Shown here one piece after another: positions 3,332 through 44,355 of a stretch of DNA of 47,494 nucleotides. A program made the position numbers and the translations under genes. Within the stretch, counting starts at the first letter, position 1. Each line of letters opens with the position of its first letter. The DNA comes from Candidatus Rifleibacteriota bacterium (GTDB lineage Bacteria; Muiribacteriota; Ozemobacteria; Ozemobacterales; Ozemobacteraceae): NCBI GenBank assembly GCA_051747585.1, contig JBNJGH010000013.1:1-47494 (forward strand), in the 5' to 3' direction. The notes beneath the pieces are model-generated. The model was not told the origin of the DNA, made no database searches, and saw only the letters and a program-made list of their open reading frames with translations.

Positions 3332-3371
3332 AAAAAAAGCCTGCTCATTATTTTATGGGCAGGCTTTTTTT
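3332..3371. terminator. Bidirectional intrinsic terminator
   Basis: aaaaaaagcctgctcat...atgggcaggcttttttt between convergent genes. Confidence 0.85.
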
Positions 3372-3381
3372 ATTTTAAAAC

Positions 3382-4245
3382 TCAGCTTGTAAGATAGTTG
3401 AGCAGATCATCTGATCTGCGTGGGTTTCGTAATTTTGACAAGGCTTGCGACTCTATCTGGCGAACTCTTTCTCGGGTTACCCCCAGAAGTCTGCCAATCT
3501 CTTCGAGAGTGTGAGATTTGGTCTCATGAAGCCCGAATCTGTGCATCAGCACAATCCGCTCTCGCTCTGTCAGTGATGTCATAATGCGGTTTAATTCCTG
3601 CTCTAAGGAGCGTTTTTCCGCTTCGGCAAGAGGGTCTGATTCGTAGTCTGTGATAACATCGCGCAAATACAAATCTTCTTCCGGATCCACGGGGGTGGTA
3701 TCCATTGATACAACCGAAGGAATATCTCTTAAAAATTTGCGCAAATCTTTAGGTTTCATAAAAGCTGCTTCTGCAAGCTCTTCAAGTGTGGGCTTGCGGT
3801 TCAGCTTTTTTTGCAAAGTATCTTCGAGCTTTCTGATTTTCAAGCCGGTATGTACGCGGTTCAATGGCAATCTGATTGGATTACCGTGGCTTGAAACTAT
3901 CTGAATCATTGCTTGACGTATCCACCAGACAGCGTAAGAAATGAACCTGACATTTTTGTTGCAGTCGAATCTTTTTGCTGCCCGCATAAGACCAAGATTT
4001 CCGACGGCAATGAGGTCTTCAAAGGGAACGTCGTTGATGTGTCTGTATCTTTTGGCCACTGCAACGACAAATCTAAGGTTAGCCAGTATCAGGCGTGCCT
4101 GAGCTCGAGAATCACCGGTTTTAACCCTCTTTAGTAGTGTTATTTCTTCTTCTTTGCTTAAAGGTGGATATTTCTTCAGGTCCTTGAAGTAATTCTTAAG
4201 AAGCAGATTATCTTTATCAAAGTCATGTTTTTGAATACTAGCCAT
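3382..4245 (-). CDS. RNA polymerase sigma70-family factor (RpoD/RpoS-like group 2, no region 1.1)
   Basis: Region 1.2 YFKDLKKYPPLSKEEE; region 2 NLRFVVAVAKRY...FISYAVWWIRQA; region 4 TLEEIGRLLGVTRERVRQIE. Confidence 0.92.
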   Translation of the reverse strand: MASIQKHDFDKDNLLLKNYFKDLKKYPPLSKEEEITLLKRVKTGDSRAQARLILANLRFVVAVAKRYRHINDVPFEDLIAVGNLGLMRAAKRFDCNKNVRFISYAVWWIRQAMIQIVSSHGNPIRLPLNRVHTGLKIRKLEDTLQKKLNRKPTLEELAEAAFMKPKDLRKFLRDIPSVVSMDTTPVDPEEDLYLRDVITDYESDPLAEAEKRSLEQELNRIMTSLTERERIVLMHRFGLHETKSHTLEEIGRLLGVTRERVRQIESQALSKLRNPRRSDDLLNYLTS

Positions 4246-4339
4246 TTGAATCTCCGTTTCTTTTCTGACTGCTCAGCTCTTTGTCGTGTACATAATTTTG
4301 TTCCTCCTGAACGTCATTATGTACGGCAGGCTGATCTTA

Positions 4340-4366
4340 CAATCGGAACTTTTTTATAATTTTTTA
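4340..4366 (-). promoter_or_regulatory. Putative sigma28-like promoter of the sigma70 gene
   Basis: Minus strand TAAA-N15-TCCGATTG versus consensus TAAA-N15/16-GCCGATAA. Confidence 0.5.
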
Positions 4367-4535
4367 ACTGAAACAGGAAAAATTTTTGTTACCTTAACAG
4401 TTTCTGGTAGAAAAACTGCTAAACCTCTCTCTGGTTAACAATTTGTTAAACTCTTTAATTTTTTACTTTACTCTCTCTCAAATCCATCATAGCATTTTTT
4501 TGTTGGAGTTGCAATACTTGGTTACTAAAAAAGTA

Positions 4536-35129: not shown

Positions 35130-35483
35130 ATGTATCAGCAGTTTTCTTTTGACTCAGAAACAAGTGATCTTGTTGAAATAGTACGTTTGAAAGGATACCT
35201 CGAAGATACGGGGGGCAGCTCTCTTAAAGATTATATAGAAGAAGTTCTCGAGGCAGGCCGAACAGATTTTGCCCTGGATTTGAGCAAGATTGAGCTTATC
35301 TCAAGCCCGGGAGTTGCAGCCCTTTTAGATATCAGTACCATGATAGTAGATGATTATGCCGGTGAGATAGCTTGCTGGGGGCTTGACAAACATCATTCAA
35401 CCGTTCTTGAAATGTCGGGCTTCTTTTTTATGGCAAATCAGGTTGCCGATGAAGCAGAAGCATTGAGCTTTTTTAAAGAATAG
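35130..35483 (+). CDS. STAS-domain protein (anti-sigma factor antagonist-like)
   Basis: IVRLKGYLE, LDLSKIELISSPGVAALL, TVLEMSGF, DEAEAL; GGAGGT RBS. Confidence 0.88.
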   Translation: MYQQFSFDSETSDLVEIVRLKGYLEDTGGSSLKDYIEEVLEAGRTDFALDLSKIELISSPGVAALLDISTMIVDDYAGEIACWGLDKHHSTVLEMSGFFFMANQVADEAEALSFFKE

Positions 35484-43500: not shown

Positions 43501-44355
43501 ATGAAAAAACAACAGTGGTATTTTATTTTTATACTAAGCCTTTTCGCCTCTTCTTTGCTGTATGCTTCGTCAGGAACCATAAAATCAGGCGATATTATCA
43601 GCATCTGGGTTAAAGGTGAATCGGATCTTACTGTAAATCGACAGGTAGACGCCAATGGCAGCATCGATTATCCTTTGCTTGGCTCTATAGGAGTTAAAGG
43701 TCTTGAAACCTCCGACGCAGCCTCTCTTGTTAAGCAGATGTTGCAGGATGGTTATCTTAGAAATCCTCAGGTCAAAGTTGTAATAAAAAAGAGAGGCAAC
43801 ATATCAGCTTCATCTTCAAGTAGAAATTCTACTTCTACTGAACCATTAGGCTCAAAAAATCAGCAATCAGTTACTACTTCGGAACCCGTTCTTATAAAGG
43901 TGGTTGACGCCCAATCCGGAAAAGGCATTGATCAGGCTGCATTGTTGCTTGCTAATAGAGTTTACCAGTCAAACAAACTTGGGCAGATACTGGTAGATTC
44001 TACCAGTGGCAGATTTGTTCTTATTGCTGACGGCTATGAAATAATGAATTCTAATATGGCAAAAGAGCTTAAATCCGGTAAGCCTCAAAGAATTGAACTG
44101 GCTAAAATTCCTCTTGCAGACCAGATAATGTTTCGGGTTCTCGATGCTTTTACCAGAAAACCATTGAACGGTGTTTCTGTAAGCCTGGATAATATGAAAG
44201 TAAAGACTAATAGAAATGGAATCTTTAAAATCAGAAAGTTGAAAAGAGAGTTTGGTGAAGTTAAACTGAACAAAAGGGGATATAAATCACACCGGTTGGT
44301 TGTTGATTTCAAAGGCCCCAAAGAACAACTAATTCTGATGGTGCGCGATGAATAA
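43501..44355 (+). CDS. Exported protein with Poly_export (OPX/Wza N-terminal) domain and two carboxypeptidase-regulatory-like repeats
   Basis: IKSGDIISIWV...VDANGSIDYPLLGSIGVKGL...YLRNPQVKV; Ser-rich linker; V.DA.T/S.K.I/L repeats. Confidence 0.8.
   Translation: MKKQQWYFIFILSLFASSLLYASSGTIKSGDIISIWVKGESDLTVNRQVDANGSIDYPLLGSIGVKGLETSDAASLVKQMLQDGYLRNPQVKVVIKKRGNISASSSSRNSTSTEPLGSKNQQSVTTSEPVLIKVVDAQSGKGIDQAALLLANRVYQSNKLGQILVDSTSGRFVLIADGYEIMNSNMAKELKSGKPQRIELAKIPLADQIMFRVLDAFTRKPLNGVSVSLDNMKVKTNRNGIFKIRKLKREFGEVKLNKRGYKSHRLVVDFKGPKEQLILMVRDE

Follow-up and report, generated by a model that had tools for sequence, protein, structure and literature searches.

A conserved three-helix leader RNA with a predicted CsrA-binding loop precedes a group-2-like sigma factor gene in Candidatus Riflebacteria

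The hag gene of Bacillus subtilis is transcribed from a sigma28-family promoter, and the SigD-tcdR pair of Clostridioides difficile is a precedent for a sigma28 promoter placed before another sigma factor gene. In the rpoS leader of Escherichia coli, an upstream stem sequesters the Shine–Dalgarno (SD) sequence of the sigma gene. Translation of hag is set by the Hag-FliW-CsrA partner switch, in which secreted flagellin frees FliW (PMC7652899); the hag leader combines an upstream GGA hairpin loop with a GGA motif over the SD, and its FliW-type CsrA is encoded beside fliW and flagellin (PMC7652899, PMC13443453). In Campylobacter jejuni, whose CsrA system is FliW-controlled, the 5′UTR of flaA has a conserved structure that shows compensatory changes and contains ANGGA motifs; the 45-nt leader has two adjacent hexaloops 21 nt apart, where the optimum is 18 nt (PMC4894983). 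CsrA also represses sigma factor mRNAs, namely E. coli rpoE, Legionella rpoS and Acidithiobacillus rpoS, the E. coli and Legionella cases being sRNA-controlled (PMC7652899, PMC5338858, PMC13029372). The E. coli gene iraD is preceded by an SD and start codon at a CsrA-type motif; they belong to ORF27 (idlP), which overlaps iraD and is translationally coupled to it (PMC7652899). Leaders of the hag/flaA type and CsrA control of the sigma mRNAs rpoE and rpoS are thus already known.

We analysed the leader of a sigma factor gene in a window of 47,494 nt (contig JBNJGH010000013.1, Candidatus Rifleibacteriota bacterium). Like hag, it combines an upstream GGA hairpin loop, a GGA motif over the SD and, by prediction, a sigma28-type promoter. 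Unlike hag, it precedes a sigma factor rather than a flagellin, carries a pentaloop instead of a hexaloop, has a second, sigma70-type promoter and sets its two sites far apart across a three-helix stem, the SD site having no C...G closure. Where flaA has paired hexaloops in a short leader, we found one pentaloop in a leader of about 90 or 235 nt. The rpoE and rpoS cases share with it CsrA action at an alternative-sigma leader, which is predicted for the leader studied here; its predicted inputs are FliA and FliW instead of sRNAs, and its sigma factor is neither RpoS nor RpoE. As at iraD, an SD and a start codon at a CsrA-type motif precede the main gene, but neither frame nor stop is conserved, and the start codon lies buried in the fold. 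The Bdellovibrio FliA regulon offers the same promoter geometry and a sigma28 motif before many non-flagellar, exported-protein genes; its promoters are mapped by transcription start site whereas ours are predicted, and the accessible part of that work describes no group-2-like sigma factor with such a leader (PMC3627812).

Judged by its sequence, the gene product is a group-2-like sigma70 factor: it is about 42% identical to RpoD and stays under the cut-offs of the RpoD, RpoS and RpoH models in a profile search. An RpoS identity was rejected (TIGR02394, 206.5 bits against a cut-off of 378.7; PRK05657, 194 against 394), and RpoE was set aside. Of the 51 genomes of its own family, 48 encode an ortholog, while the best matches in 24 genomes from the phylum's other families are at RpoD level (about 38–43%); by these comparisons we regard the factor as specific to its Riflebacteria family. 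Region 4.2 is RpoD-like (TRERVRQ). Region 2.4–3.0 departs from RpoD (RQAMIQ..IRLPLNRVH versus RQAITR..IRIPVHMVE), and because of this difference an altered −10 preference would be expected. A DUF2325 gene lies upstream in 32 of 45 testable loci. Between 3382 and 11627 the window reads yebC-ruvA-ruvB-mutS-DUF2325 protein-sigma, all on one strand (ruvA and ruvB named from their translations, yebC and mutS identified separately). In proteobacteria, mutS lies close to an alternative sigma gene in the mutS-rpoS region; the resemblance is probably a coincidence. Two orthologs, L030 at codon 125 and L052 at codon 180, hold one in-frame stop each (TGA and TAG) past which the frame continues, and are broken genes or assembly errors. 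A divergent 479-aa sigma factor with a cysteine-rich N-terminus and without the standard region 4.2 motif is encoded at G000:C6:38031-38678.

Table 1. Coordinates of the sigma gene, its leader elements and its predicted promoters in the window.
Feature	Position	Strand	Description
Predicted sigma70-type promoter	4486..4514	minus	TTGCAA-17-(TG)TATGAT; start ~4479, leader of ~235 nt
Predicted sigma28 (FliA)-type promoter	4340..4367	minus	TTAAA-N16-CCGATT = TAAA-N15-TCCGATTG; start ~4334
Outer helix P1	4266..4334	minus	here TCAGC 4334-4330 with GCTGA 4277-4273 and a short extension
Middle helix P2	4288..4324	minus	GTACATAAT/ATTATGTAC, core GUACA/UGUAC invariant
Apical hairpin P3	4300..4312	minus	GTTC-AGGAG-GAAC; pentaloop on C-G then U-A
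Mini-ORF MYTTKS-UGA	4273..4293	minus	present, not conserved
RBS element GAAACGGAGAT	4250..4260	minus	SD GGAG and ANGGA motif (ACGGA); invariant 20/20
Sigma factor CDS	3382..4245	minus	287 aa; regions 1.2, 2, 3, 4; no 1.1
Probable terminator	3340..3366	minus	GC-containing inverted repeat then T run after the sigma stop; read by eye

The sequence-only reading had drawn the leader as a hairpin of nested stems, with a 9-bp GTACATAAT/ATTATGTAC stem, GTTC/GAAC around an AGGAG loop and a TCAGC/GCTGA closure, and folding confirmed this. The leader folds at −24.6 kcal/mol (z = −2.74; one of 200 shuffles was equally good). In the partition function the loop bases are unpaired (P 0.99–1.0), and both the upstream ATG, whose burial had been proposed, and the TGA are paired (P unpaired 0–0.13).

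The hairpin is present in 20 of the 48 orthologs, from genera g1, g5 and g10 of Ca. Riflebacteria, and absent from the other 28, which include genera g8, g12 and g15. Across 18 distinct leaders five pairs of P2 are invariant and the sixth reads CG, UA, UG or AU; the third pair of P3 varies among UA, AU and GU. The loop follows UC-AGGAN-GA: of the 20 leaders that the protein search yielded, 19 have TCAGGAGGA and one has TCAGGACGA. In ortholog L010 the loop is AGGAC, which destroys AGGAGG and retains the CsrA motif. P1 takes a GGUUGCC/GGCRRCC-like form in other leaders, with variable, wobble-tolerant 3′ arms; an alignment-free test found it significant in 19 of 20, the exception being our own genome, whose TCAGC/GCTGA closure we read as a lineage-specific remodelling of the helix. 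In a model-fitted alignment 93.2% of cells were paired, where slid controls reached 25–50%, and double changes numbered 10, where shuffles gave 3.2; on an unfitted MAFFT alignment P2 and P3 gave 95% and 8 double changes against 2.9. The covariation is moderate evidence, since the double changes fall at two or three pair positions only and the sequences are kin. The strain changes that run X1 shows within the hairpin (4298 and 4314) both fall on unpaired bases, a weak observation. We conclude from these comparisons that the conserved feature is the three-helix RNA structure and not the upstream ORF.

The element is single-copy: all 20 strong matches in 51 genomes lie at the sigma gene, with one 25-bit match elsewhere, and so do 9 of 9 model matches in metagenomes (in the metagenome pattern search, 48 of 57 matches were chance). 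Rfam gave no match at the gathering score (best E 0.5), and a multi-locus riboswitch class was rejected on the single locus per genome. In a quick tree, which leaves out L030, L052 and L056, the hairpin genera and the loop-less g8, g12 and g15 form one clade (SH-aLRT 99), in which g8, g12 and g15 nest with g5 (97). Since the hairpin clade includes these loop-less genera, a single gain of the loop, followed by loss or remodelling, is likely; the 20 hairpin leaders are kin and amount to about one origin. The leaders L012-L018 and L047 (g12), L014 and L016 (g8) and L050 (g15) have no AGGAG loop and retain GTAC(A), in most cases as part of a short predicted stem; those of g12 also have two single-stranded AGGGA motifs close to the SD. 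The invariant GUUGYCGUACA/UGUAC core is not explained by CsrA.

That the GGA loop might serve CsrA-type control had been proposed from the single sequence, and comparison now lends this part support. An A(N)GGAX hairpin loop on C-G then U-A is present in all 20 protein-found hairpin leaders, and the apical AGGAN pentaloop is likely a CsrA site (site 1), as predicted from its form. Stem-loop SL4 of RsmZ, a lower-affinity RsmE site, shares this anatomy, its AGGAX loop of 5 nt having no N and being closed by C-G then U-A; RsmZ is a decoy sRNA with many sites, whereas here there is a single mRNA leader site, and pentaloops bind 10–1000-fold more weakly than hexaloops (PMC4005645). B. subtilis CsrA keeps more than 50% repression on a 5-nt hag loop trimmed 5′ of GGA, and a C-17T change at the hag SD site abolishes its repression (PMC13443453). 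In our leader the ACGGAG at the sigma SD is a possible weak second site. The element that contains it, GAAACGGAGAT, precedes only one of the 3333 called genes of the genome, and this second site (AACGGAGA) lacks the C...G closure that the flagellin SDs have. The two GGAs lie 52 nt apart with the long stem between them.

CsrA itself is widespread in the lineage: 56 of 61 genomes have csrA over the cut-off, and the gene is mostly retained in g8, g12 and g15, which have no loop. In our own genome flgL, fliW, csrA and flagellin are adjacent in a row. The CsrA encoded there, at G000:C11:8236-8508 of our genome, has a C-terminal extension, N55 (residue counted by hand) and K rather than D at 41; N55 is required for FliW control (bioRxiv 2020.07.02.184341). 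Flagellin leaders of the phylum carry a C-ANGGAN-G hexaloop hairpin in 25 of 31 (a count that includes loops ending in U, which the strict count of 11 of 31 misses) and CANGGAGG at the SD in 30 of 31, so the canonical CsrA code holds in the lineage; the pentaloop occurs in none of the 31. Our genome contains no CsrB-like sponge in the sense of a cluster of at least four CA(N)GGANG motifs within 300 nt. At G000:C47:4880-4945 two CsrA-type hairpins, a pentaloop CAGGAGG and a hexaloop CATGGAAG, are adjacent in apparently non-coding sequence and are possibly a small CsrA-binding RNA or a leader. Another genome, G019 (96% complete), has csrA, fliA and a sigma ortholog with a degenerate promoter, and no flagellin match at E 1e-35.

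Two promoters that the sequence-only reading had missed are predicted upstream of the leader. The boxes of the inner one fit a TAAA-like −35 and a GCCGATAA-like −10 at fixed spacing. This sigma28-type pattern (TTAAA-N16-CCGAT, composed after inspecting the ortholog leaders) occurs in 32 of 48 leaders when read strictly and in 37 when relaxed, against 1.25% in shuffles and 0–1 at other spacings save for a one-base-shifted reading; it is also present in genera without the hairpin. FliA (TIGR02479 over the cut-off) is encoded in our genome, and 50 of 51 family genomes have one FliA. A sigma28 promoter class in our genome is, on pattern counts, real: 26 sense against 8 antisense matches stand out among 1887 upstream regions at one spacing, the remaining spacings giving 1–8, and the class includes flgK and flgM, with ddl, murC and pilM added by looser patterns. 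The copy at the sigma gene is one base shorter than this main class; its spacing occurs in none of the 31 flagellin leaders, four of which have the longer one, and TTAAR-N16-CCGAT by itself is not enriched in the genome (5 against 2). The geometry is identical to the start-site-mapped FliA consensus of Bdellovibrio, TTAAG-N16-CCGATA (PMC3627812).

For the outer promoter, 19 of 20 hairpin leaders have an extended −10 at a distance of 237–257 nt upstream; none of the 28 others has one beyond 100 nt. Contigs of six of seven RNA runs (three studies) end at 4462-4471 and the DNA run X1 continues beyond, a weak hint of a long leader transcribed from about 4470; the RNA contigs point only to this long transcript, none ending near 4334. 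Over the DUF2325 gene they gave one 27-nt partial match and over the neighbouring peptidase gene none, which carries no weight. The sigma ribosome-binding site (RBS) is open in short (0.6–4.1 kcal/mol) and long transcripts alike, and in 18 of 19 long leaders its closure is at or below the mean of shuffled extensions, so repression would need a trans factor. A cis-inhibited leader of the rpoS type was rejected on the same opening costs and on the same comparison of long leaders with shuffled extensions. We also rejected the sigma28 −10 box as an anti-SD in the long transcript: the duplex, at −6.0 kcal/mol in most of the hairpin clade, does not surpass cross-genus pairings or the values of 37 control promoters (mean −5.2, sd 2.7), and the long leaders close the RBS no further than shuffled extensions do. 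A LexA box and an autoregulatory −35/−10 were considered too, but the spacing did not fit.

Taken together, these features suggest a flagellin-like gate of sigma28 and CsrA/FliW on the group-2-like sigma gene, acting through the AGGAN stem-loop behind the sigma28-type promoter, a reading that we hold with confidence midway between acceptance and rejection. After export of FlgM, sigma28 would transcribe the sigma gene from the inner promoter, and with this promoter the short transcript would begin at the foot of the stem. CsrA would dock on the AGGAN pentaloop and, in the manner of B. subtilis hag and E. coli glgC, reach with its second surface the ACGGAG that covers the SD. It would hold sigma translation down until inactivated by FliW; secretion of flagellin would free FliW and lift the block. 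The sigma factor would thus be made at completed flagellar assembly, under a transcriptional lock (FlgM/sigma28) and a translational one (FliW/CsrA), and the CsrA lock would also dampen the longer sigma70-type transcript. The sigma70-type promoter and the loop occur in the same three genera, and because they co-occur the loop may gate the housekeeping transcript; the co-occurrence is one evolutionary event and not a statistic.

The mini-ORF had received another interpretation, in which the sigma gene answers to a leader peptide or to UGA readthrough. Its parts are there as described: AGGAGG at 4308-4303, ATG at 4293 and MYTTKS before a TGA at 4275-4273 of the minus strand (codons ATG TAC ACG ACA AAG AGC TGA), from which the frame runs on through nine sense codons (AVRKETEIQ) into the sigma ATG at 4245, whose GGAG lies at 4255-4252. 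The TGA is genuine, for contigs of six runs from three studies (X1, X2, X3, X4, X5 and X9; study labels P1, P2 and P5) bridge it unchanged, which rules out a sequencing error; the contig of run X6 ends 23 nt past it and run X7 has a gap there. An upstream SD with ATG precedes 6 of 1366 genes with a long upstream region in our genome, and one in frame with a single stop precedes 1 of 1366. This confirmed TGA, the continuous frame across it and the open in-frame extension in 3 of 25 relatives would favour programmed readthrough, by which the protein would gain 16 aa at its N-terminus, or stress sensing by a leader peptide MYTTKS, but we find either scarcely credible. Among 25 hairpin leaders (the 20 orthologs from the protein search and 5 distinct metagenome copies from a loop-demanding pattern) the stem is conserved, whereas start codon, frame, peptide and stop all vary. 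An in-frame UGA is found in our own genome only (1/25), within four bases that the model alignment places as an insertion and that form the 3′ arm of the remodelled outer helix; nothing of the peptide is conserved past its first two codons, which the stem imposes. For peptide and readthrough, the orthologs show what the sequence-only reading had itself named as a refutation. SelD was not found in our genome (93.55% complete), nor a UCA-anticodon tRNA among its 36 tRNAs (an incomplete set), and TGA is an ordinary stop that terminates 979 of 2995 long ORFs. We therefore read the mini-ORF as a probable by-product of the P2 3′ arm plus a local insertion. A related and less remote idea, which we nevertheless think unlikely, is that AGGAGG is a real upstream SD at which weak initiation on the NTG of the stem melts the stem or overruns the sigma RBS, possibly in competition with CsrA as at iraD ORF27. 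AGGAGG occurs in 24 of 25 leaders with ATG, GTG or TTG 8–9 nt away in 24 of 25; the 5′ strand, once released, could base-pair around the SD (in most leaders at −5.2 kcal/mol); and CAGGAGGA is a normal SD context in our genome, where a C precedes AGGAGG at 93 of 200 true SDs (TC..A at 22 of 200), which weakens the argument that the flanks fit CsrA over the anti-SD. Against this, the UGUAC arm of itself supplies the NTG, whose first base covaries with the base opposite; the codon is GTG in 14 of the 25 leaders (ATG 9, TTG 1, CTG 1) compared with 19 of 200 genes with AGGAGG, although the gene caller favours ATG; opening the upstream RBS costs 6.6–14.8 kcal/mol in the 20 leaders, against 0.6–4.1 for the sigma RBS; L010 loses the SD; and L056 has CTG. 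The ORF shares the sigma frame in 4 of 25 leaders, overlaps sigma out of frame in 20 (stops +5 to +259), fuses to it without a stop in 3 and stops upstream in 2, in different frames, and because frame and stop are scattered there is no consistent coupling to sigma.

The stem itself invites a different explanation, in which another factor (a protein, an sRNA with Hfq, or a ligand) binds its invariant GUACA core, a double-strand nuclease cuts it, or the stem shields the sigma28 transcript at its 5′ end; the AGGAG loop would then be secondary. We consider this somewhat unlikely, yet it has substance: the five P2 pairs and the 5′ strand are invariant while flanking pairs covary, the loop-less g8 and g12 leaders are predicted to form a short stem whose 3′ arm carries GUAC, the stem begins right at the predicted sigma28 start, and the purine-rich AGAGAG 5′ end is conserved. 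Hfq is encoded in 36 of 37 genomes, with two genes in our own and two paralogs in family genomes. Such a site would, however, leave the invariance of UC-AGGAN-GA unexplained, has no Rfam match and, at a single locus per genome, differs from typical riboswitch classes. It is very unlikely that the inverted repeat acts as DNA instead, as an operator to which a transcription factor binds shortly after the sigma28 start. Its GTACA/TGTAC half-sites are invariant and near the promoter, but within the hairpin clade the distance between them differs by about 2 bases, and in g12 it shrinks to about 7, the G-U-tolerant changes in P1 and the loop covariation fit RNA, and the motif is not repeated elsewhere in our genome.

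To return to the sigma28 and CsrA/FliW gate, if it is true, a global transcription factor and not a filament protein would be under the joint control of sigma28 and the Hag-FliW-CsrA switch. A bolder version, which we regard as rather unlikely, would put this lineage-specific, housekeeping-like sigma factor, with its altered −10 recognition residues, in charge of a second programme, that of the motile phase, as its master switch. The life cycle would have two phases as in Bdellovibrio, the sigma factor would stand under the double lock of FlgM/sigma28 and FliW/CsrA, and the GUACA core would be the input site of a further factor. The stem-loop itself is a real, previously undescribed, lineage-restricted RNA element, probably cis-regulatory: no description of it was found in the literature on Riflebacterial sigma and flagellar regulation and on FliA/FliW-CsrA control of sigma factors (a search outside subscription journals), and in the PMC13443453 supplement Riflebacteria appear only as a tree label. 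Riflebacteria are a phylum-level lineage without a cultured model, for which the element would be a first handle on life-cycle regulation. It is compact (about 90 nt), single-copy, without an Rfam family and testable, a B. subtilis CsrA reporter chassis being at hand, and it shows that an SD-like, putative CsrA loop on a GUAC stem can mimic an upstream ORF.

Some further observations concern the transcripts and the sigma28 genes. In four of seven RNA runs a contig within 4073-4469 of the window ends inside the sigma CDS, at 4073-4105, possibly as a stable 5′ fragment or a premature end; in run X5 the leader-side contig has a depth of 107 against 8 for the 3′ piece. At 4470-4480 and in orthologs, the long transcript starts with a conserved AGAGAGAG and an A-rich tract, a possible Hfq or S1 site. 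The sigma28-type promoters of our genome precede mostly non-flagellar genes, looser patterns adding a STAS protein; regions downstream of them include C11:12105-14105, C11:14778-15158, C4:23044-24141, C48:352-1767 and C23:28463-29602, and, inside the window, 35130-35483 and 43501-44355. Signal-peptide-like N-termini are found in 17 of 26 genes behind such promoters, against 687 of 1861 others in a crude test, and the gene set resembles the Bdellovibrio FliA attack-phase regulon. One flagellin (G000:C265:1428) has, by eye, a sigma54-like −24/−12 motif instead of a sigma28 one, and relatives hold tandem arrays of up to 12 flagellin-domain genes (G014:C2:1044424-1089764).
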